Source: a virus
Length of the DNA: 64,000 nt
IMG/VR virus record: IMGVR_UViG_3300042691_049879
Coordinates: 4,801 to 68,800 of that record
Direction: 5' to 3' (one strand)
Below the pieces are notes generated by a model that saw nothing but the letters and a program-made list of their open reading frames with translations, had not been told where the DNA came from and searched no databases. Position 1 is the first letter of the stretch, and every line of letters begins with the position of its first letter. Both the position numbers and the translations under genes were made by a program. Shown piece after piece: positions 23,039 to 37,196 of this stretch.

Positions 23039-23043
23039 ATTAT

Positions 23044-23121: not shown

Positions 23122-23131
23122 ATTATATATG

Positions 23132-23205: not shown

Positions 23206-23213
23206 ATTTATTG

Positions 23214-23287
23214 TACGCCTAAGTGGAATTGAACCACTGACCTCTTGATTATCAGTCAAGTGCTCTAACCAACTGAGCTATAGGCGT
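23214..23287 (-). tRNA. tRNA-Ile(GAU)
   Basis: CUUGA-CUGAUAA-UCAAG. Confidence 0.92.
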
Positions 23288-23293
23288 ATGTTG

Positions 23294-23366
23294 CGCACCA
23301 GGCAAGATTCGAACTCGCAACTACTAGTTTTGGAGGCTAGTACCCATACCATAGGGTCTCTGATGC
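23294..23366 (-). tRNA. tRNA-Trp(CCA)
   Basis: Loop CUCCAAA, G73, T-arm GUUCGAAUC. Confidence 0.85.
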
Positions 23367-23450
23367 ATTTTGTAGCTCAAACAAACATTTAATTAAGCTC
23401 AACTTAAAATATTAATGAGCTTTAAATATTACTTTTTGAGCTGTATTTTG

Positions 23451-23523
23451 AGCAAGAGATGGGGTTCAAACCCACGGCCTTCTGAGTGGAAGTCAGATGC
23501 TCTATCAACTGAGCTACTCTTGC
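23451..23523 (-). tRNA. tRNA-Gly(UCC)
   Basis: UCUGA-CUUCCAC-UCAGA, U73. Confidence 0.9.
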
Positions 23524-23531
23524 ATATGTTG

Positions 23532-23609
23532 TGGGGATAGAAGGACTCGAACCTCCGTGTGGTATGCTTGATTTACAGTCAAGTGCAGTCGCCGCTGTGC
23601 CATATCCCC
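23532..23609 (-). tRNA. tRNA-Tyr(GUA)
   Basis: CUUGA-CUGUAAA-UCAAG. Confidence 0.9.
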
Positions 23610-23666
23610 ATTTTCCGATTTTCTTTAATTTTCAGTTTGCGGTATCGGACTACCATTTCTGCTACG

Positions 23667-23792
23667 TGGACGGAGCTAGATTCGAACTAACATTAACCAT
23701 TTAGGTGTTTAGTGTACTGCTAAACTTGCTTGCCGACAATCGAGGTTTGGAATAGGCGATAATCCAAACTGACATGCCATTGCCATCCGTCC
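23667..23792 (-). ncRNA. Oversized tRNA-like RNA (126 nt) with extra arms
   Basis: Acceptor GGACGGA/UCCGUCC-A, T-arm GUUAG-UUCGAAU-CUAGC, D-like arm, three internal hairpins, no canonical anticodon loop. Confidence 0.65.
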
Positions 23793-23795
23793 TTA

Positions 23796-23872
23796 TGGTG
23801 GAGCTGGGCGGGCTCAAACCGCCGACCCCTGCAGTGCAAGTGCAGTGCTCTAGTCAACTGAGCTACAACCCC
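23796..23872 (-). tRNA. tRNA-Ala(UGC), CCA encoded
   Basis: G3-U70 pair; loop CUUGCAC. Confidence 0.92.
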
Positions 23873-23885
23873 ATAATAATTAAAA

Positions 23886-24804
23886 GCTTGAGACTACAGC
23901 TTTTGCAACAATACTTTCATCCTTACATTCCTTTAAGTGCTACCTTATTGGTTTGAGATTTATCCACAGTGTCCCTTTCAGGTATCTGTATATTGTCATC
24001 GCTGCCTTTTTTGAAGAGTGGCATTTCTCTTATCAATACTAACTACTCGACATTTCGAATCATCACCTGTCTTGCGGACATTAATTACGCTTTTAACGCT
24101 TATTAGAAAATCTTCTACTTTATCAAACGACTTTCCCTTGCGAGGTCCATCGCTCCTGTTATCTTAAAGACCAGGAATTAAGCGACTTTTCGTTTAGTAT
24201 TTGTTCCAGACTTTTGCTTTTAATTTGCTTGATGAAGGAGTTGAACCTTCGACCTATTGTTTAAGAGACAATCACTCTACCAACTGAGTTAATCTAGCTT
24301 TTTTACCTACTAAGTTGTGCTGGAACCATTGCTTCATTCTCTTTTGAAGAACAAAATACAACACAACTCTATGCGTTTCGGCTTGCGGCCTACTGTACAG
24401 AAATTAACTTTAATTTTCATCAAAGCTTATTCAAGATTACTACGACAACTTTAACATCATCGCCTCACCTCTCATTCTGGAGTCTAGCCCTTGATTTGCG
24501 GTCTCGAACAGTACTCCTACACCTTATCCATACTCTAGACTACGTGACTTGGATATGATAGATAACGCATCCCTGCATCTATTTGTGTCCAGCATCGCCT
24601 AACACTTATCCTTTCCAAAGGACTATCTAATCACTTACGCCTTTCACTCCGCTTGGTTACGAAGTCTGCTGTTGGCAGCAGGGGACGGTGCTTGCTTGAA
24701 TTGACCATAAAATGGCGGGTAGTTGTAGGCAACTTTCCCCTTCACATCATTGCTGATGTTTATCTTTCTTCGTGACGCCATAAGACATCACAACCTTCTC
24801 AAGC
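23886..24804 (-). ncRNA. Large ornate ncRNA, GOLLD-like (~920 nt)
   Basis: ORF-free and GC-elevated; 5' GCUUGAGA pairs with 3' UCUCAAGC; several GCAA tetraloop hairpins on the minus strand; lies in a tRNA operon and contains a tRNA. Confidence 0.65.
24226..24298 (-). tRNA. tRNA-Lys(CUU) embedded in the large ncRNA
   Basis: AUUGU-CUCUUAA-ACAAU; one acceptor mismatch. Confidence 0.85.
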
Positions 24805-24844
24805 AAAGGTAATTTTTTTAATATTTCAAAGAACTTATTTTCAG

Positions 24845-24920
24845 TAGGGTAGACAGGGCTCGAACCTGCAGTAATGTCCTCATCCCAAATGAGGCGACTT
24901 GCCAATTAGTCTACTACCCT
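24845..24920 (-). tRNA. tRNA-Pro(UGG)
   Basis: CCUCA-UUUGGGA-UGAGG. Confidence 0.88.
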
Positions 24921-24966
24921 ATTTTTCAAATTATGAAAGCTCGTTTGCTTCCTAAAGTTTTGACAC

Positions 24967-25064
24967 AAAAAAACCCGAATCTTTTTTATGGATTCGGGTG
25001 TGTTCTAGTTTGATATATATTTGTTTAACTTAACTAATCAATACTATTGTGAATTAACACACCC
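24967..25064 (-). promoter_or_regulatory. Attenuator 1 (terminator plus antiterminator) before tRNA operon 1
   Basis: Terminator CCCGAAUC/GAUUCGGG-U7 (24967-24998); GGGUGUGUU (25056-25064) can pair with AACACACCC (24996-25004). Confidence 0.8.
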
Positions 25065-25141
25065 ATACCATCCCAACGATACGCGGGACAAATCCCCGTC
25101 GCTGTCGGTCTAATATTCTTATATGTGTTAATTGTTTTCAT
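25034..25141 (-). CDS. Leader peptide 1 (MKTINTYKNIRPTATGICPAYRWDGMGVLIHNSID)
   Basis: 35-aa ORF between the TACATTTG promoter (25197-25204) and the terminator; codons match downstream tRNAs. Confidence 0.8.
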   Translation of the reverse strand: MKTINTYKNIRPTATGICPAYRWDGMGVLIHNSID

Positions 25142-25344
25142 TTTGTTTTTAGTTTAAATATAATTAAAAAATCTTTTTTCTAATTTTGTAACGTTGCAAA
25201 TGTAAGAAAATTACACAAAAAACAAAACATTTTTTTAATTTTTTTTTCACTTTTTTTATAAAGTGCTGATAATCAATAAGATATTTTTTAAAATTTTTTT
25301 TTTATTTTTCATAAAAAATATTAAAATAAAATATATTTATTTTT

Positions 25345-25773
25345 ATGAATAAGCAAGAGTTAAGAAAATTAATAAGAGAATCTTTTGGAAATGATTCTCA
25401 AATATATGTTACTGAAGGAATAGAAGTTGATGCATATTTAAGTTCTACAATTAATCCAGATGACTACTATACTAACAAAAGTAAAGCTACAATATATTGG
25501 ATTATTGATATGGAAAATAAAAGTTTTGGTATAAAAGAATTCTTTCCAGTAATAAAAAAAATAGATTTAAATTTAGAAATTTGGAGAGAAGAAAATCAAG
25601 AATACGAAACAATAAAAAAAGTATTTGATAATATAAGTGCAGCAGACGGAGGTACAATAGAAGATTTTAAGTTGACAATCACAAAAACATGTGATAGAGG
25701 TCATATTTATCCTACTGATTTATTGATGGATGAAGGAAATAAAACAATAGAAATAAGTTTTGATATGCCATAA
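25345..25773 (+). CDS. Hypothetical protein with ELRKLIRES tag
   Basis: TATTTAT at 25334. Confidence 0.65.
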   Translation: MNKQELRKLIRESFGNDSQIYVTEGIEVDAYLSSTINPDDYYTNKSKATIYWIIDMENKSFGIKEFFPVIKKIDLNLEIWREENQEYETIKKVFDNISAADGGTIEDFKLTITKTCDRGHIYPTDLLMDEGNKTIEISFDMP

Positions 25774-25879
25774 TTATTTGCCATGAAAAAGAAAGACGAA
25801 GAATTCGATGATTACGATTGGTTCAATGAACAAAGTATTTGAAGATACGGTTTAGGACCGTTATAGTTTCGGCTATACA

Positions 25880-25920
25880 GGCCATCTAAAGCTCGCTACT
25901 ATTAGATGGCCTTTTTTTTT
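25880..25920 (+). terminator. Intrinsic terminator
   Basis: ggccatctaa...ttagatggcc followed by a T-tract. Confidence 0.75.
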
Positions 25921-25946
25921 GATATTTATTAATATAATATACAAAC

Positions 25947-26630
25947 ATGTTAAAGGAAAATTACATAAAAAGATTAAAGGAATTAGCTGGTATTATTTCT
26001 GAAAATAATATAGAAGAAAAAAATGAATTAAATGATTTAATCTATAGTAATGAGGTATTTTTAAGTGAAAATGAAAAATTTAGAAAATACTTTAAAGGCA
26101 TACAAATAAACGACTATAAAAACAAAACATTTCCAGAAAATAATTCTGAAAAAACAAGAGAAGAATTATTGAAAATAAAAGCCCTAAAAGCAGATGAGGA
26201 ATTTATAAGAGAACATGATAATATATATTATGTATTTAAAAAATATTTTGAAGAAAACAATTTAGATTTTCCAAAACTTTTAGTTAAAGATTTAATAGAG
26301 GCTTCAAGATATTTCTTGATGAAACTTAAATATCATTATAAAAGACCAAGACCATATCAAATAGCAAAAAAGATGGATATAAACTTAAATTCAATTAGAC
26401 TTAGTTCGGCTAAATCTCCATCTTTTCCTTCTGGACACGCTTCTCAATCAAATTTAATAGCCTATGTGCTTTCTGATATGTTCCCAAAGCATGAAGACAA
26501 ATTGATGAAAATAGCAGACAATATCTCAAAAAGCAGAATGATGGCAAAAGTCCATTTTCCAAGCGATATAGAATATGGTGAAAAAATAGCAAAAGACCTA
26601 TTTAAACAATATAAGAAGAACAATAAATAA
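25947..26630 (+). CDS. PAP2-superfamily phosphatase / vanadium haloperoxidase-like protein
   Basis: KYHYKRPRP, SPSFPSGHA, SRMMAKVHFPSD. Confidence 0.85.
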   Translation: MLKENYIKRLKELAGIISENNIEEKNELNDLIYSNEVFLSENEKFRKYFKGIQINDYKNKTFPENNSEKTREELLKIKALKADEEFIREHDNIYYVFKKYFEENNLDFPKLLVKDLIEASRYFLMKLKYHYKRPRPYQIAKKMDINLNSIRLSSAKSPSFPSGHASQSNLIAYVLSDMFPKHEDKLMKIADNISKSRMMAKVHFPSDIEYGEKIAKDLFKQYKKNNK

Positions 26631-26666
26631 GAAAAAAAATAATATTTATCAATATAATATTTAAAC

Positions 26667-27110
26667 ATGAGAAAAGAAAAACTACGTATGAAAATGCTTT
26701 CAGGTATTATCACAGAAAGTGAATACAAAGCAAAATTAGAAGAAAATTATGATGCAAATTCTATTGGTTCAGAAATAGATGAGTGGATTGAAGCTAATAG
26801 TGATTATATATCAAAGTATAGTTTAGAAGATAAAGTAAAAGAATTATTAGGAATTGATTCTGAAATAACATCAACAGAAGAGATAGAAGAGGATAAAGGA
26901 GGGAGAATGTATGGTGAAAATTGGGACAAGAAATTGATTACAATTAAACTAAATGGTCAAGATTTAGTGAAAGTTTGGACAGATTCAAATGGAAGATTTG
27001 CTTTTGGAAAGAGTAGTATACATTTTGATGATTTGCCAAAAGATAAAATAGTTTCAGCACCTTATGGTGGTGGTGCTCGTTTTTATTTTGACAGAAGCTT
27101 ATTAAATTAA
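26667..27110 (+). CDS. Hypothetical protein with RMKMLSGIITE tag
   Basis: TATTTAT at 26643. Confidence 0.65.
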   Translation: MRKEKLRMKMLSGIITESEYKAKLEENYDANSIGSEIDEWIEANSDYISKYSLEDKVKELLGIDSEITSTEEIEEDKGGRMYGENWDKKLITIKLNGQDLVKVWTDSNGRFAFGKSSIHFDDLPKDKIVSAPYGGGARFYFDRSLLN

Positions 27111-27167
27111 CCTAAAAACGTGCCTTCTTCTGAAGCACCAAGACAAAAAAACCTAGAATTTCTAATT

Positions 27168-28184
27168 ATGAACAATAAAATTTTATTAGAACACGATAAT
27201 GTTATAGATGAAATTATTTCATTATTTGCATTAAATGAGGCTGGTATACCAGATAACCCTTCTGATACTTATGTGTGGGATATTGCAAAAGAAAAAGTAG
27301 AAAAGGCCACTAATAAAATTGATAATAAAGAAAGGGCTATTTTGTTTGTGGAAAAATTTTTACAAAAGGCAAAAATGTTGCCTAAAAAAATAAAGGTTAG
27401 ATTAACAAAGTATGTATTAACTGGTCTTTTAGGATTATTGTCAATGACAACAATCAATAACCTTTTAAATAACGAAGTTCCAGAAGTAAAAAACGACATA
27501 ATCAATCAACTTTCCGTTATAACAACAAATTTTGAAAAAGAAAAAAAAGATTATAAACAAGATAAAGAAGTTGAACAATCATATTATTTTAAAACTCCAA
27601 AAAAAGTTTCAGATAATTTGATAGAATTTTTAAAAAAAACAGAAGGTTATAGGTCAATAGGATATATTGTAAAATCGAATAATGGTAGAGACGATGGAAT
27701 GATAACGATTGGTCATGGACATGCGGAACCAAAAAGAAAATCAAAATACAAAGTTGGACAAAGAATCTCAAAAGAGGAAGCTGAAAAACTTTTGAGGCAA
27801 GACCTTAAAGATGCAGAAAAAGCAGTTAATGATATTTTTGAAAAATGGGACAAAGAAGGAATACCATATCAATTAGACCAGAATATGTATGATGCGATGG
27901 TTTCTATAGCGTTTAATAGAGGAAGAGGAAATTTATGGAACTCAGAATTTGTAGCATTAATTAAACAAGGTAAATATATAGAAGCTAAAGAAGAAATAAA
28001 AAATATGAGTAAACATAAATATGCAGAATTTCCTGGATTAAAAACTAGAAGATATGAAGAAGCGGAAATGTTTGGAAAAAATCTTGATAAAGTACTTGCT
28101 TTACTAAAAGACGTTTCTAAAAATAATAATACTATTTCTGAATCATATAAATTAAGACTCAAAACTTTAGCTGGCATTTTATAA
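27168..28184 (+). CDS. GH24 phage lysozyme domain protein, possibly virion-associated
   Basis: LKKTEG...TIGHGH...ISKEEAEKLL..DL...QNMYDAMVSIAFNRG...GLKTRRYEE; ATG at 27168 preferred. Confidence 0.85.
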   Translation: MNNKILLEHDNVIDEIISLFALNEAGIPDNPSDTYVWDIAKEKVEKATNKIDNKERAILFVEKFLQKAKMLPKKIKVRLTKYVLTGLLGLLSMTTINNLLNNEVPEVKNDIINQLSVITTNFEKEKKDYKQDKEVEQSYYFKTPKKVSDNLIEFLKKTEGYRSIGYIVKSNNGRDDGMITIGHGHAEPKRKSKYKVGQRISKEEAEKLLRQDLKDAEKAVNDIFEKWDKEGIPYQLDQNMYDAMVSIAFNRGRGNLWNSEFVALIKQGKYIEAKEEIKNMSKHKYAEFPGLKTRRYEEAEMFGKNLDKVLALLKDVSKNNNTISESYKLRLKTLAGIL

Positions 28185-28232
28185 ATAAAAACTATTTATA
28201 TAAAACAAAAACAAACACAAAAACAAACAATT

Positions 28233-28481
28233 ATGAAAAATTTTTTATTAAACATGTTAAGCTCTGAAGGAAAGACATCTTCTAAAAGATTTATTACTTT
28301 TCTAGCCTTTGGACTAATATCAATCGGCTTTTTAGTTGATTTATTTACCAATTTAACAATATCAGAACAAGTGTATTCAGGTGTTGAATATATAGTTATA
28401 GCTGGTCTTGGGTTTACTGCATCTGAAAATTTTGTTGGATGGAAAAGAGCATCAAAAGGAAAAAGTGATGTGGAGGGTTAA
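28233..28481 (+). CDS. Holin-like membrane protein (2 TM)
   Basis: SSKRF followed by two hydrophobic helices; adjacent to lysozyme. Confidence 0.55.
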   Translation: MKNFLLNMLSSEGKTSSKRFITFLAFGLISIGFLVDLFTNLTISEQVYSGVEYIVIAGLGFTASENFVGWKRASKGKSDVEG

Positions 28482-29337
28482 AGATTTATTTATAAATTTA
28501 TTTTTAAAAATTAGACTTTGGTATTTTGTTAAATTTAAGCCAAATAAATTTAACAATGTAATAAACAGCATAGAAAAAAATGGCTGGGAACTTACATTCA
28601 ATGATGAATTTGATAAAGGCGAATTGGACAGAACAAAATGGAGAACTGATAATTATTTTGGTCTTAGATATCACCCAGGTAACATAACAGAAAAAGGTAT
28701 AGCTCCAGATGTATATTTTGACGATGACTGTTTTGAATTTACAGATACAACAATGAAACAAATTGCAAAGAATGAACCTATTGATGTTAATTACATTGAT
28801 TGGAATGGTCGTGATTGGGGTAAATACACAATACCATATAGAGTTGCAATGATTGATAGTTCAAACAGTTTTTCTCAGAAATATGGTTATTTTGAAATTA
28901 GAAGTAAAGTAACGCCAGAACCTGGTAGTTGGCCAGCATTTTGGATGGTTTCTACAGATTTTTATCCTCCAGAAATTGACATATACGAAATATATACAGG
29001 AAGGAAGGGTGCGGCAAATTCTTTTACTTCAACTTTTCACTGGAAGGAGAGGCCTATAGAAGAATTGAAAAAGAAAATGAAAGCTTCAAGACATTGGACT
29101 ATGGATAATGCTAAAGATTTTCATTTATACGCTTTTGAATGGGACAATAAAAGTTTTAAAATTTACTATGATAATATTCTTGTTAGAATTTATTCTAATC
29201 CAGAAGCTGTTAAATTTTTTAATTTCCCAATGCACATTATAATTAATAATTCAATACACATTGAACAAGGGCCAGAAAATGCTAAATATCCAAATTATCA
29301 TGAAGTTGATTATGTTAGAGCCTATAAAAAGAAATAA
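28468..29337 (+). CDS. Glycoside hydrolase family 16
   Basis: WELTFNDEF, YGYFEIR, WPAFW, PEIDIYE catalytic motif, FHLYAFEW, VDYVRAY. Confidence 0.88.
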   Translation: MWRVKDLFINLFLKIRLWYFVKFKPNKFNNVINSIEKNGWELTFNDEFDKGELDRTKWRTDNYFGLRYHPGNITEKGIAPDVYFDDDCFEFTDTTMKQIAKNEPIDVNYIDWNGRDWGKYTIPYRVAMIDSSNSFSQKYGYFEIRSKVTPEPGSWPAFWMVSTDFYPPEIDIYEIYTGRKGAANSFTSTFHWKERPIEELKKKMKASRHWTMDNAKDFHLYAFEWDNKSFKIYYDNILVRIYSNPEAVKFFNFPMHIIINNSIHIEQGPENAKYPNYHEVDYVRAYKKK

Positions 29338-29387
29338 TTTAAAAAAAATAAATAATATTTATATAAAAATACAAAATATAACTAATC

Positions 29388-31223
29388 ATGAAAATAACTA
29401 AATCTCAATTAAAACAAATAATAAAAGAAGAAGCTTCAAGATTTGTTCACATACAAACACTAAAAGAAAGAAGAGAGGAAATAATTAAAGAACTTAATTT
29501 ATTAAATGAGTCTGATGAACTATTAGAAGAAGGATTAAAAGGATGGATTACTGCTGGACTTTTGTCTTTGGCAGCAATAGGAGGAGGGGCAAAAGTTTAT
29601 CAATTAGAAAAAGAACATGCTAAAAATGAAAAAATAGAACAAAAATATTACAATGATTTTTTATCGGAAGCACTTCAGAAAATGTCTAAAAGTGAATTAG
29701 AAGATTTAGGTATTGACATAAATGGTAAAACAAATTATTTATACGTTTCTGGCAATGACAGTCAAGAAGAATTACAATCAATATTTTCAAATTATGCCAG
29801 AAATTATATTATGTCAAACCCAAAAGAATTTGGATTAGATTCATCTACTGGCAAAATTAAATGGTTAAATCAAGACAATTATACAATAAAAGAAAATGAA
29901 CAAATGCCTTCAGGATTTGTTCACATACAAACACTAAAAGAAAGAAGAGAGCAAATAATAAGAAAAATTAATTTACTAAATGAAGAAGAAGTGGGAAATA
30001 AATCTTTATTGGAGCAAATAAAAGACTTACTTAAAGCTAATAAATTTTTGGCAGATAAAGCTGACTTTATAACTGAAGAAATGGTAAAAGATGAAGGTAA
30101 TTCTATATATTTACAATTTCCAAATGAACTAGACTCTCCTCATATAAAAAAACATTTTGATAAATCAGGTCCTGCATCAGCTTGGTCAATAAGTAAAGAA
30201 TCTGTAAGTGATTTGATTTTAAAAACAATAAAAACAAAACCAACAAAGTCCGTTCAAGAAGGGCCAACATTTAAATATAAATGGCTTAATGTAAATTCTG
30301 GTAAAAATATAGGATTTGATTCTTTGAAAAAAGTTAGCGAAAAAGTAGAGCAAGTTGTTGACTTAGAACCGTTTGGAATGGTTGATAGAGTTAAAGATTG
30401 GAATCAAATAAGTAAAGTTGTAAGTGATAACAATTATGAGCTAGTAACAAAAAACGAACAACCATATACTGAAGAAGATTTAAATAATAATGAACCTGCT
30501 TTTATAAAACAAAATATAGGAGTTATTTATGGTGATAAAACAGAAAATCCAACAAGTATTTTTAATTTAATTTTAGCTAAAATTGGTGAGGTTAACAATA
30601 AACCAGTACTAACTTTAATGACCGTATTTCCTGGAATTAATCCTGTTGATAACTCTGGTAATGATATTACCAATAAAAAAGATTTAATAAAACATGGATA
30701 TGCTTTAATCAAATCAAAGTCAATAAATGAATCAATAAGAAAAATTGTTAGAGAAGGATTTTTAAATCTTTTAAAAGAAAATATTTATGATAATATTGAA
30801 AACATTTCTGATAAACATTGTGGTGGCGAATTTAATTGGTGGAACCTTATGGAAGATATTAAATTAGCATTAAAAGGACATTTTGAAAACTATTCTATAA
30901 CTGAACTACCTGATACTGATGATTCATGCGGCTTTAAAATAACTAAAGATGACCGTTCAGTTCCTTTATATATTAAATATGATGATGATAGAGGTGAAAA
31001 TATAATTAAAATTATATGTAAAGATTCTAATGGAACTTATGAATATGAAATGCTTTCTTGGGAAAATACTGGCGGAGAATCTAGAGGATTTGACTCATTC
31101 GGACATGAAAGTTCATCATATCAAGAAGAAGGTGTTGAATGTGATGTTAAAAAAAGTAATATTCAAGAAGCTATAACTGAAATTGAAGAATATTTAAATA
31201 AAAAATACGATAGTATAAAATAA
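29388..31223 (+). CDS. Modular probable virion-packaged protein
   Basis: MKITKSQLKQIIKEE tag; FVHIQTLKERRE.II...NLLNE occurs twice; TATTTAT at 29356. Confidence 0.65.
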   Translation: MKITKSQLKQIIKEEASRFVHIQTLKERREEIIKELNLLNESDELLEEGLKGWITAGLLSLAAIGGGAKVYQLEKEHAKNEKIEQKYYNDFLSEALQKMSKSELEDLGIDINGKTNYLYVSGNDSQEELQSIFSNYARNYIMSNPKEFGLDSSTGKIKWLNQDNYTIKENEQMPSGFVHIQTLKERREQIIRKINLLNEEEVGNKSLLEQIKDLLKANKFLADKADFITEEMVKDEGNSIYLQFPNELDSPHIKKHFDKSGPASAWSISKESVSDLILKTIKTKPTKSVQEGPTFKYKWLNVNSGKNIGFDSLKKVSEKVEQVVDLEPFGMVDRVKDWNQISKVVSDNNYELVTKNEQPYTEEDLNNNEPAFIKQNIGVIYGDKTENPTSIFNLILAKIGEVNNKPVLTLMTVFPGINPVDNSGNDITNKKDLIKHGYALIKSKSINESIRKIVREGFLNLLKENIYDNIENISDKHCGGEFNWWNLMEDIKLALKGHFENYSITELPDTDDSCGFKITKDDRSVPLYIKYDDDRGENIIKIICKDSNGTYEYEMLSWENTGGESRGFDSFGHESSSYQEEGVECDVKKSNIQEAITEIEEYLNKKYDSIK

Positions 31224-31242
31224 AATTAATAATAATCAATTT

Positions 31243-31284
31243 AAAAAGCCCACTAAAAAAGCCCACTAAAAAAGTGGGCTTTTT
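31243..31284. terminator. Bidirectional terminator with duplicated arm
   Basis: gcccactaaaaaa twice, then gtgggcttttt. Confidence 0.75.
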
Positions 31285-31286
31285 AT

Positions 31287-31793
31287 TTAATTAACAATTC
31301 CAACATAAACTTTCCAGGAATCATGAAAAGAGTTTAATCTTTCTATGTATGACAAATAATTAGGCCTAAAAGGTTTATGATGCATTGTCAAATTGTATTC
31401 CTTTAAAAAATCATCTACTAATAAATCTCCTTTTTTAACATTACATTTTCCGCAACAAGTAACAAGATTATTCCAAGTATTTTGTCCTCCTTTTGACCTT
31501 GGATGAACATGGTCTATAGTTAATTTTTCGCTAGAACGACAATATATGCATTTAAAATCATCTCTTCTAAAAACATTTTCTCTTGTTAAGTTAACCTTTC
31601 TAAATGGAACTGAAACATATCTTAATAAACGTATAACTGTAGGTCTTTGGTATTTTGTTGTTGAAGTAACTATTGGTCTATCAGGTATATGTTCTACTAC
31701 TTCAGCCTTACCTTTAAAGACCAATTTAAAACCTCTTGACAATGTTGTTACATTTATAGGTTCATAAGCACTATTTAAAACTAATACCTTCAT
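31287..31793 (-). CDS. HNH endonuclease (McrA-like)
   Basis: VLVLN.AYEPI, RD...CIYC, TIDHVHPRSKGG..TW.NLVTCCGKCN..K. Confidence 0.9.
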   Translation of the reverse strand: MKVLVLNSAYEPINVTTLSRGFKLVFKGKAEVVEHIPDRPIVTSTTKYQRPTVIRLLRYVSVPFRKVNLTRENVFRRDDFKCIYCRSSEKLTIDHVHPRSKGGQNTWNNLVTCCGKCNVKKGDLLVDDFLKEYNLTMHHKPFRPNYLSYIERLNSFHDSWKVYVGIVN

Positions 31794-31872
31794 ATAATTT
31801 ATTTTATAATTATAAATAATTATTTTTTTTTATTTAAAAACTATTCAATTTATTATTTTTTTTATTTTAAAG

Positions 31873-31956
31873 TAGCGGAGGTCGGACTCGAACCGACGGG
31901 GTCTTTCGACACAAGGTTATGAGCCTTGCCAGCTACCAACTACTTACTACTCCGCA
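31873..31956 (-). tRNA. tRNA-Met(CAU), initiator-like, with long variable arm
   Basis: 1:72 mismatch, CAAGG-CUCAUAA-CCUUG, extra GUC-GAAA-GAC arm. Confidence 0.75.
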
Positions 31957-31964
31957 ATATATTG

Positions 31965-32038
31965 TAGCGAGAGACAGAATCGAACTGTCGACCTTGGGGT
32001 TATGACTCCCACGCTCTAGCCAACTGAGCTATCTCGCC
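31965..32038 (-). tRNA. tRNA-Met(CAU), elongator
   Basis: GGCGAGA acceptor; loop GUCAUAA. Confidence 0.82.
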
Positions 32039-32215
32039 ATAAATTAAAGCCTACATTAAGTAAGCTTTAATTTTTTTAAGAAGGATTTAATTTTTTTTAT
32101 TCTTCTTATTTTTCTGATTTTATTTGCTCGTTCAAAAATTAAACGAACTTTTTTATCAATCTTTCCTTCTCTCTCTGACACACTTAACACTTCTCTCATA
32201 TCTATTTGTTTTTAT

Positions 32216-32548
32216 TTATTCTTTTTTATCTGGAAGCTTTGAATCCAATTCATTTATTAACCAATATGGACTTCCACCTTCTACTTAATGTATTTCGTTG
32301 AAACCATTTTCTTTAGTAATTAAAGACTCTTCTTCAGTTATTGAGCCAGAATGTTTTCCTGCACCTTTTTTATTTTCAATATTACCAGTACTAGGATTAT
32401 AACTGCCCCAATCAGCCATTCTATCATTTCCTATTGTTTCAATAAAATATTTTTTACCAGTTCTATAAGAAACAACAATCTCTCTTCCAGTTTCATCTCT
32501 ATTAATCAAAAAGTTTTTTAATACTTCTTCTTTTATATTTCTTTTCAT
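32216..32548 (-). pseudogene. Phage hypothetical protein interrupted by an in-frame TAA
   Basis: Frame continues after ...NEIH* as VEGGSPYWLINELDSKLPDKKE*. Confidence 0.45.
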
Positions 32549-32559
32549 TTTAAGTCATT

Positions 32560-32751
32560 TTAAAGTTCAAACGAGTGTGATTTGCCACACTCGTTACACT
32601 TTACGTCAATGTAAGTGTAAGACCAGTCTTCGTAATAATTACCTTGACTGATATATGGATTTTGAATTTCTTGTCTTATTTTTTTATTTTCTGTTGGACA
32701 AGTAAACTCAATTTCAATCACATGTCTAATTGTCGTACATCCTTTTAACAT
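32560..32751 (-). CDS. Small Zn-ribbon protein
   Basis: CPTE...CNECG; ATG at 32751 (the track start overlaps tRNA-Gly). Confidence 0.6.
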   Translation of the reverse strand: MLKGCTTIRHVIEIEFTCPTENKKIRQEIQNPYISQGNYYEDWSYTYIDVKCNECGKSHSFEL

Positions 32752-32772
32752 GACTTTTAATTTTAGTTTTTG

Positions 32773-32846
32773 AGCAAGAGATGGGATTCCAACCCACGAC
32801 CCCAACCTTGGCAAGGTTGTGCTCTAAGCAGCTGAGCTACTCTTGC
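32773..32846 (-). tRNA. tRNA-Gly(GCC)
   Basis: CAACC-UUGCCAA-GGUUG. Confidence 0.9.
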
Positions 32847-32855
32847 TTATTGTTG

Positions 32856-32929
32856 CTCTCCCGCCTGGGCTCGAACCAGGGACCCTCTGATTAACAGTCA
32901 GATGCTCTAACCAACTGAGCTACAGGAGA
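32856..32929 (-). tRNA. tRNA-Asn(GUU)
   Basis: UCUGA-CUGUUAA-UCAGA, G73. Confidence 0.93.
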
Positions 32930-32947
32930 TTGTATTTACATTATTTG

Positions 32948-33023
32948 CGGTCCCACACGGATTCGAACCGAGCTGAAATCCTCCGTGACAGGGAGGTGGC
33001 CACACCAAGCAGCCCCTGAGACC
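32948..33023 (-). tRNA. tRNA-Asp(GUC)
   Basis: CCUCC-CUGUCAC-GGAGG, G73. Confidence 0.88.
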
Positions 33024-33042
33024 TTTTTTTTTACAAAAAGTG

Positions 33043-33116
33043 GGTGAATAGTCGGAATCGAACCGACGACACAAGGAACCACAATCCTATGCTCTGCCTA
33101 CTGAGCTATATCCACC
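33043..33116 (-). tRNA. tRNA-His(GUG) with G-1
   Basis: Loop UUGUGGU; G-1:C73. Confidence 0.9.
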
Positions 33117-33164
33117 ATATTAAAACTTACTTTTTTCACATTAATCGGAATTTAGATTGTGCTT

Positions 33165-33239
33165 TTTACCTTGTTGGAGTCGAACCAACATTCTCTCGGC
33201 TAACCGCCGAGCGCCCTACCAATTTACTACCAAAGGTAA
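33165..33239 (-). tRNA. Atypical tRNA-like RNA, GUU anticodon with G33
   Basis: UUACCUU/AAGGUAA acceptor, CUCGG-CGGUUAG-CCGAG, perfect T-arm, unpaired D-arm. Confidence 0.55.
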
Positions 33240-33281
33240 GTAAGTTTTTTATTTTAAATTCAAAGAACGTTTTCTTTTTTG

Positions 33282-33355
33282 TTCCCCCGACAAGATTCGA
33301 ACTTGTGGCCCTTCCATTAAAAGTGGAATGCTCTAACCTGCTGAGCTACGAGGGA
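33282..33355 (-). tRNA. tRNA-Lys(UUU)
   Basis: UUCCA-CUUUUAA-UGGAA. Confidence 0.88.
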
Positions 33356-33363
33356 ATAATTTG

Positions 33364-33436
33364 TGCGCCCAGCAAGATTCGAACTTGCGACCCCCGCATT
33401 AAAAGTGCGGTGCTCTACCAACTAAGCTATGAGCGC
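33364..33436 (-). tRNA. tRNA-Lys(UUU), second divergent copy
   Basis: CCGCA-CUUUUAA-UGCGG. Confidence 0.9.
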
Positions 33437-33493
33437 ATTTTGATTTGGGATTCGCTCACACTTATTAGTAGAGTGAATCCCTAAAGTTTATAT

Positions 33494-33748
33494 TTAAATT
33501 TCTTTTTCATTTTCTTCAATTTCTTTTAATACTTCTTTTAAAGCTTCTCTTTTAATTTTATTTCTTTCTTTTCTGTATTTGTAATATGAACACATTTCAC
33601 AACTACATGGTGTCGATGTAGATTTCATCCAATAATAAAATTCTCCATCATTAAAAAATTGTTTAACTCTCTTTTTAACTTTTTTAGCTAAATCTTTCCT
33701 TCTTTTTGCTCTTTTGTAATTTTTCATTTTTACCTCAGTTTTTGCCAA
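33494..33748 (-). CDS. Small basic protein (PCSCEMC motif)
   Basis: TSTPCSCEMCS; true start uncertain. Confidence 0.6.
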   Translation of the reverse strand: MAKTEVKMKNYKRAKRRKDLAKKVKKRVKQFFNDGEFYYWMKSTSTPCSCEMCSYYKYRKERNKIKREALKEVLKEIEENEKEI

Positions 33749-33810
33749 TTACTCTTGAGCCAAGTAACTAGCTTGTTATATGAGGTATCTAATTCTACAA
33801 TTTTTCATTT

Positions 33811-34023
33811 TTATATTTTTAAAGTCACTAACACATAAGCATTTACATACTTACCGTCATTTATAAATTTTAGTTCATTATAAACATATCCTTTTTTAAC
33901 AGCCATTTTTTCAAGTTCATCATAATAATCATCGAAGAACTCTTCAAAATCTTGTTTTTTTATTTTCTTTAGAAATATCAAACGTTCTTCGTCTGGTATT
34001 TCATTTATTTTTACTTTAGGCAT
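33811..34023 (-). CDS. Hypothetical protein
   Basis: ORF within tRNA operon 2. Confidence 0.55.
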   Translation of the reverse strand: MPKVKINEIPDEERLIFLKKIKKQDFEEFFDDYYDELEKMAVKKGYVYNELKFINDGKYVNAYVLVTLKI

Positions 34024-34048
34024 AATATTACCTTTTAGTTTTTAAGTG

Positions 34049-34137
34049 CGGAGAAGAGAGGATTCGAACCTCCGATACCAGTTTCCCAGTATGCCTTCTT
34101 AGCAGGAAGGTGCTTTTAGCCACTCAGCCACTTCTCC
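34049..34137 (-). tRNA. tRNA-Ser(GCU)
   Basis: Loop CUGCUAA, long variable arm. Confidence 0.92.
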
Positions 34138-34213
34138 AAAACGCTACCCCGTAAGTAGCGAGGGCAATGTACGGCCTTGCCAAGCCAGAGTATTTACCCT
34201 TTGGGTAAACCAG

Positions 34214-34302
34214 AGGAGAGAGAGGGATTCGAACCCCCGTTACCTTTTACGGTAAGTCTGTTTTCAAGACAGGTGCAATAAGCCAGACTCTGCCATCTCT
34301 CC
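34214..34302 (-). tRNA. tRNA-Ser(UGA)
   Basis: Loop CUUGAAA, long variable arm. Confidence 0.9.
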
Positions 34303-34317
34303 ATTATTCAAAGAACT

Positions 34318-34824
34318 TTAAATTTCAACTTTCCACATAGGGACAAATCCTGCATATCTATCATTTACAACATCTTCCCAGTGGTCTAGCCAACCATCCA
34401 TTCCAAATTGTTGTTGACCTGGAGCTAAGAACATATCTTTTTCTTTAACCCATTTAGCTTGTCCACTAAATCTTGCAACTCTCTTTGCCTCTTCATTGCA
34501 ATCATACCAAGCTCCATCTTCAAGTTGTTCTTTTGGAATAGCTATTTTTAATAAATCTAAATCTCTTTTTCTATTATGTTCAACTATTTGAACAGCTTTT
34601 TCCCAAAGTTCAGCTCCAGTAATATTTTTCCTAATTGTTTCAATTTTTTTTAAAACCTCGTTTGGTTTTTCTCCTTTATCTATTAATTCTTTTATTTTGT
34701 TGTTCCAAGTTTCTTCATTATCCATTTCTACAAACTTTTCAACTTTCTTGTTGGCATAATATTCACCATAATTTGCGTTTATAAGTCTATCGTACCATTC
34801 TTTATATTTTCCTTTAAATTCCAT
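34318..34824 (-). CDS. Hypothetical protein, first gene after attenuator 2
   Basis: 168 aa ORF starting 16 nt after the terminator U-tract. Confidence 0.65.
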   Translation of the reverse strand: MEFKGKYKEWYDRLINANYGEYYANKKVEKFVEMDNEETWNNKIKELIDKGEKPNEVLKKIETIRKNITGAELWEKAVQIVEHNRKRDLDLLKIAIPKEQLEDGAWYDCNEEAKRVARFSGQAKWVKEKDMFLAPGQQQFGMDGWLDHWEDVVNDRYAGFVPMWKVEI

Positions 34825-34839
34825 AACTCAATTTTTTTC

Positions 34840-34925
34840 AAAAAAAAACCCGAACTTTTTCGGTTCGGGTGTCTTATTTCTTTTCAGTTATATTATTAAC
34901 TTTTAAAAGTTGCTAAAGCACACCC
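34840..34925 (-). promoter_or_regulatory. Attenuator 2 before tRNA operon 2
   Basis: Terminator CCCGAAC/GUUCGGG-U9 (34840-34869); GGGUGU(G)CUU can pair with AAGACACCC. Confidence 0.75.
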
Positions 34926-35025
34926 TTATAAACCCTGATTTGTTATCATCATGATTCTTCTTTACATTCCCACTCATTTTCGAAGTGGAAACCAAAGTTG
35001 CGATATGTGTACTTGTAAGTTGCAA
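34903..35025 (-). CDS. Leader peptide 2 (MQLTSTHIATLVSTSKMSGNVKKNHDDNKSGFIRVCFSNF; TTG start, or ATG at 34977)
   Basis: ORF between the TACATTTG promoter (35080-35087) and the terminator; S/K/M/G/N/H/D-rich core. Confidence 0.72.
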   Translation of the reverse strand: MQLTSTHIATLVSTSKMSGNVKKNHDDNKSGFIRVCFSNF

Positions 35026-35257
35026 AATTTTATTTTTTATAATTGTTAATAAATATATCTGTTTTTTTAAAACCCGATACAAATGTAAAACTTTTTTTTT
35101 AATTTACAATAATTATAACGACTTTTTTTTAAAAAAATTACAAAAAAAATTAAAAAAAAACTATAAGTTATTGATTTACAGTATTTTATAATAATTATTT
35201 TTTTTGTATAAATTCATAATTTAAAAGCATTTAAAAAAAAAGTTAATATTTATTATT

Positions 35258-35758
35258 ATGGAAAAAGAAAATTTAAGACATTTAATAAGACAAATTATAA
35301 AGGAGTCTTTCAATAATGTAGAAGAAGGTTCTGGAAGTCATTCTGACGCTAAAGAGATGAGAAAAACTCTTAAATGGATTAGTAAAAATCTTGAAGGAAT
35401 AAAAATAGAAGAAGTTGGAGACGGCCATAGAATTTGTCCACCAATAGACAAATCAGATGAATGTTATACTGTGCACAGAGGGGGAAAAGGAATATATGAT
35501 TTATATAGATTTTTAGCAAAAGCATATAATGTAAATAAGCATGATATAGAATACGCAGTTAGCTCAAATAGACCATTAAATTTAACGTCTGTTAATCCTG
35601 AAGAATTAGCAATTATGAAAAAAGTTAATTTGTCTGGGAAGGATTGGTATATAGATGAAAAGGAACAAAGATTAATAATGGTGAAAAATTTAAATAAAAT
35701 TAAAAATTTTGATGATTTAGATTTTGATGAATACGAAAAAGTAATTGAAGCATTATAA
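35258..35758 (+). CDS. Hypothetical protein with LRHLIRQIIKES tag
   Basis: TATTTAT at 35247. Confidence 0.65.
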   Translation: MEKENLRHLIRQIIKESFNNVEEGSGSHSDAKEMRKTLKWISKNLEGIKIEEVGDGHRICPPIDKSDECYTVHRGGKGIYDLYRFLAKAYNVNKHDIEYAVSSNRPLNLTSVNPEELAIMKKVNLSGKDWYIDEKEQRLIMVKNLNKIKNFDDLDFDEYEKVIEAL

Positions 35759-35792
35759 AAAATGCCCGAATTACTTCGGGCATTTTCTTTTT
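35757..35792. terminator. Bidirectional terminator
   Basis: aaaatgcccgaa-ttac-ttcgggcatttt. Confidence 0.8.
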
Positions 35793-35793
35793 A

Positions 35794-35882
35794 GAGATTA
35801 TTCGAACTTCTCAAAAACCTTACCTAAAATAACATTTAATACTGTGAGGATTATTCGAACTTCCTCAAAACCTTACCTAGAA
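35794..35882 (-). repeat. Two ~36-nt direct repeats, each with a T-loop-like hairpin
   Basis: gagattattcgaacttctcaaaaaccttacctaaaa / gaggattattcgaacttcctcaaaaccttacctagaa. Confidence 0.75.
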
Positions 35883-35891
35883 ACTGATGTG

Positions 35892-35965
35892 TGGTCCCAG
35901 CAGGGCTTGAACCTGCGACCCCCTGATTATGAGTCAGGTGCTCTGACCAGCTGAGCTATAGGACC
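35892..35965 (-). tRNA. tRNA(CAU), probably Ile2 (lysidine-modified, reads AUA)
   Basis: GGUCCUA acceptor, CCUGA-CUCAUAA-UCAGG, Ile2-like body. Confidence 0.8.
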
Positions 35966-35970
35966 AAAAA

Positions 35971-36155
35971 TGGCTATCTGTTGATGCAAACAATTTACCT
36001 TGACTAGTATTTGGTAAACCCGTTAAGTCTATCATCTTTTATCTATATTCTACCCTATGTATAGGGGTGACATTAACAGAAACTCCTCACACTAGATATC
36101 CTCACACGGATTTGTGCCCTGGTAGAGCTAGTGATATGTTTGGAGCTTATCGCCA
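35971..36155 (-). ncRNA. Unidentified structured RNA (~185 nt)
   Basis: End pairing UGGCGAU/AUAGCCA; stems CAAACA/UGUUUG, CACUAG/CUAGUG, CCCUAU/AUAGGG, UUUACC/GGUAAA. Confidence 0.55.
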
Positions 36156-36180
36156 ATTTTTCAAAAAACTTTTTTTAAAA

Positions 36181-36309
36181 TGATATATAGACGTGCAAGG
36201 TAATGGTTTGCAGCCCGTATTAACACGTAACTTTTCTCTGATGAGTGTGTATCTGCAAAGCTACACAACTGCCTCCATACGAATCAGAAATAAGCGACTC
36301 TATATATCA
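36181..36309 (-). ncRNA. Unidentified structured RNA (~130 nt) with potential pseudoknot
   Basis: 11-bp closing stem UGAUAUAUAGA/UCUAUAUAUCA; loop UUUGCAG complementary to CUGCAAA. Confidence 0.55.
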
Positions 36310-36315
36310 TTCTTG

Positions 36316-36399
36316 TGGTATAGGGTGGAATCGAACCACCGACAAGTCAGACGTACATTACTGCCCTTGCCCCAGGTTTGCTAGCTATTTTACTATACC
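36316..36399 (-). ncRNA. tRNA-like RNA with expanded anticodon region
   Basis: GGUAUAG/CUAUACC-A acceptor, GGUGG-UUCGAUU-CCACC T-arm, 19-nt loop in the anticodon arm. Confidence 0.6.
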
Positions 36400-36410
36400 A
36401 TATATTAAAA

Positions 36411-36499
36411 TTCAATGGTGGGATTCGAACCCTAAAGAGTCAACATTAAACTCACCCTCCTGTACGTCCTTGCCAAACAAGATAACTTTCCTCATTGAA
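36411..36499 (-). ncRNA. tRNA-like RNA, non-canonical
   Basis: UUCAAUG/CAUUGAA ends, GGG-UUCGAAU-CCC T-loop hairpin. Confidence 0.55.
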
Positions 36500-36562
36500 T
36501 TTTTTAAATTTTAGGGGGAACAATGTTAATTTCCCTAGTACAGGTGCTCCTAAAATTTATTG

Positions 36563-36636
36563 TACACCCACCAGGATTCAAACCTGGGACCTATTCATTA
36601 GAAGTGAATTGCTCTATTCAGCTGAGCTATGGGTGC
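36563..36636 (-). tRNA. tRNA-Arg(UCU)
   Basis: AUUCA-CUUCUAA-UGAAU. Confidence 0.92.
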
Positions 36637-36731
36637 ATTTTAATCTTTCAAAGAACTTTCATTGTTTATTGTAACGACAAATGTAAAACTTTATTACAAT
36701 AAAACAAAAAAAAATTAATTTTTTATTTTTG

Positions 36732-36803
36732 TACTCTAGAAGGGAATTGAACCCTCACCTTCATATTATAAGTATGATGCTCTGACCACTGAGCTACTAG
36801 AGT
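36732..36803 (-). tRNA. tRNA-Ile(UAU)
   Basis: UCAUA-CUUAUAA-UAUGA. Confidence 0.88.
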
Positions 36804-36839
36804 ATTGTTTCTTTCACAAAAATAGTCAATAATTGTGAC

Positions 36840-36913
36840 AAAAAAAAAGGTCTAGACAATTCTGCCCAGACCCTTTAGTGTTTTAATTATTAAAATTTAC
36901 ACAATATCTAGGC
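36840..36913 (-). promoter_or_regulatory. Attenuator 3 before tRNA operon 3
   Basis: Terminator GGUCUGGGC/GUCUAGACC-U9 (36840-36872); GCCUAGAU (36906-36913) can pair with GUCUGGGC. Confidence 0.8.
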
Positions 36914-36971
36914 TTGAACAAGAATTTCTTCTTATCCTTTTAGCTATTGATATTGAGTTAATTTTTTTCAT
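36897..36971 (-). CDS. Leader peptide 3 (MKKINSISIAKRIRRNSCSSLDIV)
   Basis: Codons ATA TCA ATA GCT AAA AGG ATA AGA AGA directly upstream of tRNA-Ile(UAU), Arg(UCU) and Ile2. Confidence 0.8.
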   Translation of the reverse strand: MKKINSISIAKRIRRNSCSSLDIV

Positions 36972-36977
36972 ATTTTA

Positions 36978-37139
36978 TTAATCTTTTACGATAACTGACC
37001 AAACAGTACCAACCAAAGCAACTACACCACCAACTACTTCAGTAACTAGTGTTTCATCCACTAAACCTTTCATCACTAAAAAACCACCAACGAAAGTAAG
37101 TGTGTGACGAATAATTCCTAAAACTTTTTCTTTATTCAT
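36978..37139 (-). CDS. Small 2-TM holin-like protein (MNKEKVLGIIRHTLTFVGG...GTVWSVIVKD)
   Basis: 53 aa, below ORF cutoff; TATTTAT at 37164-37170. Confidence 0.7.
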   Translation of the reverse strand: MNKEKVLGIIRHTLTFVGGFLVMKGLVDETLVTEVVGGVVALVGTVWSVIVKD

Positions 37140-37196
37140 AATATTTCTTTTAAATTACTTATTATAAATATAGAGAAAAAAACAAAAAAGTAAAGT

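Follow-up and report, generated by a model that had tools for sequence, protein, structure and literature searches.

Phage tRNA arrays that are probably controlled by codon-matched leader-peptide attenuators

What do short open reading frames (ORFs) and strong terminators do in front of the transfer RNA (tRNA) arrays of a virus? The question is raised by the IMG/VR virus record IMGVR_UViG_3300042691_049879, of which we analysed positions 4,801 to 68,800, a stretch of 64 kb out of 68.8 kb with a GC content of 29% (here called the window, whose numbering is used throughout). ARAGORN finds 23 tRNA genes in the window, on the minus strand only and in three clusters; in front of each lie a short ORF with an antiterminator segment and a strong intrinsic terminator. 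An earlier note on this DNA had claimed this layout before all three tRNA operons and had read it as attenuation of the trp/his/pheM type; we found the layout for each of the three. We consider it likely that the leaders are ribosome-mediated (leader-peptide) transcription attenuators controlling the tRNA arrays. At the sequence level the attenuation reading is supported by anatomy, conservation, compensatory changes and a frame-specific codon match, and we infer translation of the leaders, stall-dependent read-through and a physiological trigger. The features of the three units, all on the minus strand, are as follows (MFE, minimum free energy; dG, free energy in kcal/mol; nt, nucleotides; aa, amino acids).

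25197..25204, minus strand: -7 box TACATTTG of the putative leader 1 promoter, TTTG about 18 nt upstream, read from the sequence
25034..25141, minus strand: leader 1 ORF, 35 codons from ATG (MKTINTYKNIRPTATGICPAYRWDGMGVLIHNSID), putative control codons from codon 3 to codon 23
25123..25133, minus strand: leader 1 segment 1 (AAUUAACACAU), putative anti-antiterminator with segment 2 as partner (MFE and centroid folds)
25052..25064, minus strand: leader 1 segment 2 (GGGUGUGUUAAUU), partner of segment 1 or segment 3 (duplex with terminator arm, dG -17.2, z = -3.2)
24967..25004, minus strand: leader 1 segment 3 (AACACACCC, 25004-24996) overlapping the terminator (folding; terminator dG -12.1)
24920-22966, minus strand: tRNA cluster 1, Pro, Lys-CUU, Ala, Tyr, Gly-UCC, Trp, Ile-GAU, Arg-ACG, Thr and Cys (10 tRNAs)
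35080..35087, minus strand: -7 box TACATTTG of the putative leader 2 promoter, TTG 19 nt upstream
34903..35025, minus strand: leader 2 ORF, 40 codons from TTG, core SKMSGNVKKNHDDNKS, in-frame ATG at 34977
35007..35014, minus strand: leader 2 segment 1 (AAGUACAC), partner GUGUGCUU (centroid fold)
34916..34925, minus strand: leader 2 segment 2 (GGGUGUGCUU; duplex test)
34840..34872, minus strand: leader 2 segment 3 (ACACCC) and terminator ACCCGAAC/GUUCGGGU with U9 (terminator scan, 34870-34848, and folding)
31872..34824, minus strand: unit 2, an ORF of 168 aa (34824-34318), then 10 tRNAs with small ORFs interspersed (ARAGORN, ORF list)
34302-31872, minus strand: tRNA cluster 2, Ser-UGA, Ser-GCU, two Lys, His, Asp, Asn, Gly-GCC and two CAU
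36897..36971, minus strand: leader 3 ORF, 24 codons from ATG (MKKINSISIAKRIRRNSCSSLDIV), with three ATA, one AGG and two AGA in nine codons
36949..36955, minus strand: leader 3 segment 1 (CAAUAUC), within the ATA-TCA-ATA control codons, complement of GAUAUUG (MFE folds)
36902..36913, minus strand: leader 3 segment 2 (GCCUAGAUAUUG), partner of segment 1 or of the terminator arm UCUGGGC (dG -16.6, z = -4.0)
36840..36876, minus strand: leader 3 terminator, 14-bp stem with U9 (terminator scan, 36876-36845, and folding)
36803-35891, minus strand: tRNA cluster 3, tRNA-Ile(UAU), a TACATTTG promoter (36685-36678), tRNA-Arg(UCU), about 600 nt free of ORFs and one CAU tRNA

The ORF positions given in the note hold for leaders 1 and 3 (25141-25034 and 36971-36897, both opened by ATG). 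The second ORF is listed at 35082-34903 with a TTG start, and 35025, from which the note had counted, is an in-frame TTG. Leaders 1 and 2 have a common promoter box, TACATTTG, with TTG 18-19 nt upstream; the boxes are probably of the Bacteroidota type. The leader 3 ORF begins 6 nt past the stop of a holin gene. Past each leader ORF of the window, after 22-34 nt, starts a hairpin followed by 7-9 U. For leader 1 this is ACCCGAAUC/GAUUCGGGU with U7 at 24999-24967, as determined by folding; a simple terminator scan misses it because its loop is 9 nt long.

The last 48 nt of each ORF can pair with the 5' arm of the terminator that follows. These antiterminator duplexes have dG values of -17.2, -12.0 and -16.6 kcal/mol in leaders 1, 2 and 3, and were equalled by at most 3 of 300 shuffles. 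Leaders 1 and 2 carry the same switch: segment 1 (ACACAU) lies near the ORF start, segment 2 (GGGUGUG) near the ORF end, and segment 3 (ACACCC) forms the foot of the terminator stem ACCCGAA../..UUCGGGU. The mutually exclusive helices 1:2 and 2:3 thus overlap the terminator, and helix 1:2 is seen in MFE or centroid folds. Compared with shuffled sequences, the folding of the leader RNA gives z = -4.49 for leader 1 and -3.70 for leader 2. In leader 3, CAAUAUC is paired with GAUAUUG at the ORF end, and the adjoining GCCUAGA pairs with the terminator arm UCUGGGC.

Little separates the terminators from the genes behind them. In the window only about 15 nt lie between the U-tract of leader 2 and the ATG at 34824 of the 168-aa ORF, with no TANNTTTG box between, and in two related phage lineages the U-tract of leader 1 is followed by tRNA-Ala after about 13-14 nt. 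With gaps of 13-15 nt from terminator to first gene, expression of these genes would require transcripts that pass the terminator. The box listing for the window holds no TANNTTTG box between the leader 1 terminator and tRNA-Pro; a candidate promoter box there (TAATTTG) was dropped, since it leaves one spacer base only. An Rfam scan of 21000-39000 matched the leaders to no family: the leader regions give only sub-threshold hits to Thr_leader (25.7 bits) and L20_leader (28 bits), mainly over the terminators, and the T-box (RF00230) is absent at E <= 1.

Are the leaders maintained in other phages? Relatives were found through the 168-aa protein encoded behind leader 2 and through an SNF2 helicase encoded upstream of leader 3, and fall into four related metagenomic lineages: A (L004 and others), B (L001 and L018), C (L026) and D (L029). 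Leader 1 is kept in lineages A and D, leader 3 in A, C and D, and the frame of leader 2 is open in all five lineages; every leader present in lineages A-D keeps its open frame and its terminator. The contig of lineage C ends 22 nt into the leader 1 ORF, which places unit 1 of that lineage outside the comparison. In lineage B leader 3 and cluster 3 are both missing after the helicase, and the tRNAs on its 72-kb record are the nine of cluster 2 only; an 18-nt degenerate pattern for the core of the leader 1 peptide finds nothing there. Phages with a helicase of about 80% identity have 2-4 tRNAs straight behind a promoter, without a leader. The 168-aa gene is invariably placed between leader 2 and tRNA-Ser in the four related lineages.

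Where the leaders differ, the helices tend to be preserved. Helix 2:3 of leader 2 reads GGGUGUG/ACACCC in the window, GGGUAUG/CAUGCCC in lineage C and GGGUAUG/AUAUACCC in G006, a contig described below, so that the same G-C pair has been turned into A-U twice. Helix 1:2 of leader 2 changes from AAGUACAC/GUGUGCUU to AAAUACAC/GUGUGUU in lineage D, again from G-C to A-U. The CAAUAUC/GAUAUUG pairing of leader 3 appears in the MFE folds of all four lineages that were folded.

Searches beyond these lineages by sequence similarity gave little. Among cultured phage records the sole match to the leader 1 region was in a Tenacibaculum phage and confined to the tRNA-Pro part, the leader 2 region matched none, and a tblastn search with the helicase gave no match above 31% identity, so no cultured relative was found. 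In IMG/VR a back-translated pattern of the leader 1 peptide and a 20-nt block of leader 2 returned already known contigs only. The leader 3 pattern returned lineage A contigs and one further contig, L037, which we set aside as a chance match since it has no tRNA or terminator nearby.

A search with the bare switch motif (GGGTRTG, gap, AYRCCCGRA, gap, TYCGGGTTTTT), which is blind to tRNAs and ORFs, was more productive. It returned 12 IMG/VR stretches, five on known contigs and seven new. All seven new stretches are from other phage contigs; each is followed on its own strand by a tRNA array, at a distance of 16-131 nt, and each contains an ATG-opened ORF that ends just past GGGTRTG. One of these phages, G002, is a complete genome of 518,809 bp with terminal repeats; another, G003, is a 212-kb contig. 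Three further leaders, those of G002 in the list below, were found upstream of G002 clusters outside the motif selection. In the motif-found phages the leaders differ as their arrays differ:

G006: MTRTRLHMATLQGQGRHLPRG.. ahead of Gln, His, Ala, Met, Arg-UCU, Leu, Gly and Thr tRNAs
G003: ..NNTHKHFNKSSFSNKS.. ahead of Phe, Asn, His and Lys tRNAs
G002: TNTSHNHFNKSTFSNKS ahead of two Phe, two Ser, two Asn, His, Thr and five Lys tRNAs
G002: CTA AGA CAA TTA GTG TTA GAA CAA CTT ATA GAA ahead of Leu-UAA, Arg-UCU, Leu-CAA, Met, Glu, Ile-UAU, Leu-UAG, two Glu and Leu-AAG
G002: seven consecutive Gln codons ahead of four tRNA-Gln genes

The CAA codons in the fourth of these correspond to Gln tRNAs with a UUG anticodon, which are encoded farther downstream and have a leader of their own. 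To judge by their sequences, the leaders of the window look like reduced relatives of G002 leaders, leader 1 of leader c, leader 2 of b and leader 3 of a.

Taken together, the window, lineages A-D and G002-G006 provide a set of 21 leaders. All have an ORF of 23-46 codons whose stop lies 21-39 nt before the terminator arm, and a terminator with a dG of -11.2 to -16.6 and 6-9 U. In all 21 the last 48 nt of the ORF form a duplex with the terminator arm (dG -11.4 to -18.9, z -2.2 to -5.8) that at most 3.7% of shuffles match. The earlier note had named lack of conservation of the leaders as ORFs as a finding that would speak against it; the frame is open in all 21.

Do the leaders spell the tRNAs that they precede? 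Cognate codon sets were derived from the anticodons with wobble allowed. Leader 1 has 35 codons, of which 19 belong to the set of cluster 1 (13 and 1 to the sets of the other two clusters); in leader 2, 18 of 40 are cognate to cluster 2 (9 and 2 for the other sets); and in leader 3, 6 of 24 are cognate to cluster 3. A six-frame maximal-segment scan of the 68.8-kb record places leader 1 top for cluster 1 codons (15.9, runner-up 11.3), leader 2 with 12.8 in second place for cluster 2 (the top of 16.8 is elsewhere) and leader 3 in a tie at about 4th to 6th for cluster 3 (10.3, top 10.9). Whole-ORF binomial tests against the codon usage of the long ORFs of the record give 1.2e-5, 0.10 and 0.016 for leaders 1, 2 and 3. 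Judged on the window only, the claim that each leader spells the amino acids of its own operon is strongly supported for leader 1 and moderately for leaders 2 and 3, which are not the top segments of the record. Several codons of leader 1 are rare in the phage and readable by its own tRNAs with UNN anticodons (CCG 0.7, CGT 1.3, ACG 2.5, GCG 2.8 and GGG 4.6 per 1000). Such use of the rarest codons may suit a sensitive sensor, and the GC-rich hairpin may also account for it.

The comparison is sharper across phages. When eight leaders were scored against eight arrays by maximal segments, the own array was the best for all eight leaders, and one of 40,320 permutations, the identity itself, reaches the observed total (1 of 6 for the window only, 1 of 24 for G002 only). 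The ORF frame is the top-scoring of the six frames in all eight. Confinement of the match to the ORF frame argues for reading by ribosomes and not for RNA-RNA contacts. Whole-ORF binomial enrichment is strong for W_L1 (leader 1 of the window; W_L2 and W_L3 are named likewise), G002_Q, G006, G002_c and G003_2. That leader codons co-vary with array anticodons, a check proposed in the note, holds among these eight leaders; with one exception it does not extend to the tRNAs that vary among close lineages.

The proposed mechanism is the classical one. Transcription would start at a Bacteroidota-type promoter, with leader 3 fed by the holin messenger RNA, and a ribosome would translate the leader of 24-40 codons, the middle part of which is written in codons of the downstream tRNAs. 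If decoding is quick, the ribosome would reach and mask segment 2, the terminator (3:4) would form and the polymerase would stop before the array. A ribosome waiting at any control codon would leave segment 2 free to pair with the 5' arm of the terminator (2:3), and the array would be read. With no ribosome on the leader, helix 1:2 would sequester segment 2 and termination would be the default. The predicted outcome is negative feedback on the supply of exactly the tRNAs of the array, an OR gate over up to ten kinds of codon.

A ribosome footprint of 30 nt was moved along the leaders codon by codon and the RNA beyond it folded, a calculation that describes equilibrium only. For W_L1, W_L2, G002_b, G002_c and G006 the probability of the terminator is 2-70% with the ribosome on the control codons, rises to at least 94% within a few codons past the cognate stretch, and is 0.79-0.98 without a ribosome. 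Such behaviour follows the logic of the trp attenuator. In this folding a switch between the terminator and antiterminator states put forward in the note shows in five of eight leaders and not in the other three, W_L3, G002_a and G002_Q (the poly-Gln leader).

Several observations weigh against the attenuator reading. In those three leaders the terminator stands at 96-98% at every footprint position, so that antitermination there, if any, must be kinetic. Gain and loss of single tRNAs in the close lineages is poorly reflected in the leaders: Lys tRNAs number 2, 1, 0, 0 and 0 (window, B, A, C, D) against 4, 3, 3, 4 and 3 Lys codons in leader 2; lineages A and D retain AGA and AGG although tRNA-Arg(UCU) is missing; leader 1 of lineage D has AAG where tRNA-Lys(CUU) is missing; and gain or loss of tRNA-Gly(GCC) and tRNA-Leu(AAG) among the five close lineages is not mirrored. 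Among the variable tRNAs of these five lineages only Val and Phe fit, against GTC-TTT. The Gly-GCC tRNA is unable to read the GGG or GGA of the leader. Whole-ORF enrichment is weak in W_L2 (0.10), G002_b (0.08) and G002_a (0.41), where the signal is a local run of codons. Substitutions between homologous leaders are spread evenly over the codon positions (220/221/270, 235/240/247 and 75/63/77), a pattern that fits a leader whose peptide is irrelevant and that bears no protein-type signature proving translation. The start of leader 2 is uncertain, possibly TTG, and its in-frame ATGs differ in position among the lineages; its TTG aligns with the ATG start of homologous leaders in G002 and G003. 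The gap from the terminator of unit 3 to tRNA-Ile contains a TATTTTTG box (36824-36817), which lineages A, C and D do not keep, and such boxes occur at chance frequency (102 found, 117 expected). A separate TTTG-N-TACATTTG promoter at 36685-36678 belongs to tRNA-Arg(UCU) and is followed by ..GTTCTTTGAAA.., and the same arrangement is found in the leaderless relatives L007 and L014 (around 12230 and 12570). RNA-library contigs (runs X21-X24, 33900-37200) overlap no leader or terminator and are uninformative either way.

Two of the units are accordingly less simple than the note had them. The tRNAs of operon 2 do lie behind leader 2, with the gene for the 168-aa protein as the first gene. Leader and terminator do precede cluster 3; with the promoter of its own in front of tRNA-Arg(UCU), the cluster is not one simple operon. 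Its proposed content of Ile(AUA) tRNA twice together with Arg is confirmed for Ile-UAU and Arg-UCU, whereas the CAU tRNA is called Met by ARAGORN and its identity as Ile2 is unproven.

How far could other explanations account for these data? A terminator/antiterminator switch might be read by a protein, a small ligand or a directly bound tRNA, as in a T-box, with the open frame incidental. Conservation of helices by compensatory change is expected of any riboregulator, the third codon position shows no excess of substitutions, and the leaders are largely conserved as nucleotides (a 28-nt block is identical in the window and lineages A and B). We nevertheless hold such a switch to be quite unlikely: triplets that match the array occur only in the frame opened by ATG or TTG in eight of eight leaders, this frame is open in 21 of 21 and the distance from its stop to the terminator is fixed, the run of seven Gln codons ahead of four tRNA-Gln genes resembles the his and phe leaders, and neither the T-box nor another riboswitch family was detected at E <= 1 in 21000-39000. 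That the short ORFs are independent small genes or small RNA (sRNA) genes, with the arrays expressed constitutively through leaky termination or unrecognised promoters, we regard as very unlikely. The units of leaders 1 and 2, each with its own promoter and a strong terminator, do resemble stand-alone sRNA genes, tRNA-Arg(UCU) of the window is separately promoted, and the related phages with 2-4 tRNAs have a promoter and no leader. Left unexplained, however, would be the match of leader codons to the own array, the complementarity between ORF 3' end and terminator arm in all 21 leaders, the 13-15 nt between terminator and gene, and the joint gain and loss of leader and array; the leader peptides, moreover, are too variable for functional proteins, and we rejected them as conserved micro-proteins on the same ground.

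Working attenuators might also report general translation capacity or amino-acid starvation, being opened by any slow ribosome. A missing charged tRNA stalls ribosomes whatever the cause, and attenuators of amino-acid operons respond to tRNA charging. The inducible accessory tRNA array of Anabaena, the only published case that we found, answers general translational stress (PMC8421152). A general sensor, however, needs no rewriting of codons for each array, whereas the own array is the best for all eight leaders, and extra tRNA is of no help when amino acids are short; this explanation we judge rather unlikely. Finally, the codon match could have arisen by chance from GC-rich hairpins that happen to yield Pro, Ala, Gly, Arg and Thr codons. 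Cluster 1 spans 10 of the 20 amino acids, the hairpin of leader 1 is GC-rich although the genome has only 29% GC, and leader 3 ranks only about 4th to 6th in the record. Against this stand the single permutation in 40,320, the match in a single frame, the AT-rich leaders (Gln7; Phe/Asn/His/Lys) that match equally well, and the motif-only search, which led to tRNA arrays in seven of seven cases, and a chance origin is hardly credible.

Leader-peptide attenuation by ribosomes is thus the probable mode of control, and its closest models are the leader-peptide attenuators of amino-acid operons: trpL, hisL, pheL and leuL, and the multivalent leaders thrL and that of ilvGMEDA. With these the phage leaders share a promoter, a short ORF with control codons, helices 1:2, 2:3 and 3:4, a terminator and termination by default, and the seven identical codons in a row in one G002 leader recall the his and phe leaders. 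They differ in that the targets are tRNAs and, in the window, a GOLLD-like RNA and the 168-aa protein instead of biosynthetic enzymes, in that most are highly multivalent, sampling as many as ten amino acids through 1-3 codons of each, in that phages encode the system, and in that the loop would close on tRNA supply and not on amino-acid supply. The pheM leader of pheST, an attenuator of an aminoacyl-tRNA synthetase operon, likewise sets a component of the translation apparatus by the speed at which cognate codons in a leader are decoded; its target, however, is a synthetase, it senses one amino acid and it is cellular. T-box riboswitches (RF00230) also convert the state of a specific tRNA into the choice between terminator and antiterminator, but they are untranslated and bind uncharged tRNA through a specifier codon and the T-box bulge, whereas here many codons lie in one open frame.

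The nearest case of a regulated array is the trn operon of Anabaena sp. PCC 7120, an accessory array that is switched on only when translation is impaired, by promoter control through direct repeats bound by the repressor TrcR (PMC8421152, PMC10272220). The words 'leader peptide' and 'attenuat' are absent from both papers, and full-text searches yielded no description of leader-peptide or attenuator control of tRNA genes or arrays. The proposed mechanism is classical; what would be new is the tRNA-gene target and the closed loop on tRNA supply.

The genes and RNAs around the three units include further features. Within cluster 1, and downstream of attenuator 1, lies a match to GOLLD RNA in Rfam (23885-24369, minus strand, and perhaps as far as about 24800; E 5e-39, with 144.8 bits against a gathering score of 150) that encloses tRNA-Lys(CUU). 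From its position this GOLLD-like RNA would share the gate of cluster 1. Cluster 1 ends with a YqeY-like gene (22894-22487) and, behind it, an RNase P-like RNA (22223-22471, minus strand), which scores 54.1 bits (E 6.6e-13) with the archaeal RNase P model, below the gathering score of 84. In unit 2 the 168-aa protein (34318-34824, minus strand) has no Pfam family and is 50-64% identical in all four related lineages; RNA-library pieces at 34211-34249 and 35123-35161 are mismatched, of low complexity or fall within tRNA-Ser, and other organisms are their probable source. The roughly 600 nt between tRNA-Arg and the CAU tRNA in unit 3 have neither an ORF nor an Rfam match. RNA-library contigs from four runs are identical to the window over 35861-36298, two of them ending at 35973 and 36296/36298, a weak hint of a stable RNA of ~325 nt at 35973-36298. 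HNH endonuclease genes lie within or at the end of tRNA arrays in the window (31287-31793, minus strand) and in G002 cluster a (L038, about 1960-2400). A tRNA-like sequence that ARAGORN does not call (L038, 1000-1075) directly follows the terminator of G002 cluster a. Between the c-type attenuator and the first tRNA, 40-110 nt past the terminator, four large-phage contigs (L030, L031, L033, L034) keep a hairpin (AGUCGAGCAAUGACUU) followed by AAAGUUUGC. The note had spoken of jumbo phages; the record analysed here is 68.8 kb, so this size class is not established for this phage.

What would such control mean for the phage? What tRNA genes do for phages is a debate of decades, in which codon compensation, host shut-off and counter-defence have each been put forward, and to our knowledge almost nothing has been described of their regulation. 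Phage tRNAs are reported to serve as counter-defence against tRNA-targeting host systems (PMC10264068, PMC11464382), in papers that appear to concern the tRNAs and not their regulation. This would be a reason for replacement tRNAs made on demand; nothing in our data ties the attenuators to defence, and cleavage by host anticodon nucleases as the trigger is one possible use of a sensor of decoding speed. More tentatively, large Bacteroidota phages may possess a widespread sensing layer that meters decoding codon by codon through multivalent leader peptides, opens an array at any slow codon and answers depletion or cleavage of specific host tRNAs by defence nucleases with replacement tRNAs, which would make it a counter-defence sensor besides a homeostat. 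If the attenuator reading is true, the phage measures the decoding speed of the codons of its own tRNAs and makes these tRNAs on demand, which would extend a textbook mechanism of amino-acid and synthetase operons to tRNA genes and provide a natural sensor that is compact and reports the availability of tRNAs through as many as ten inputs. The leaders would then let the sequence reveal which tRNAs a phage treats as one functional set, and the gate shared in the window may hint at when the enigmatic GOLLD-like RNA is needed.

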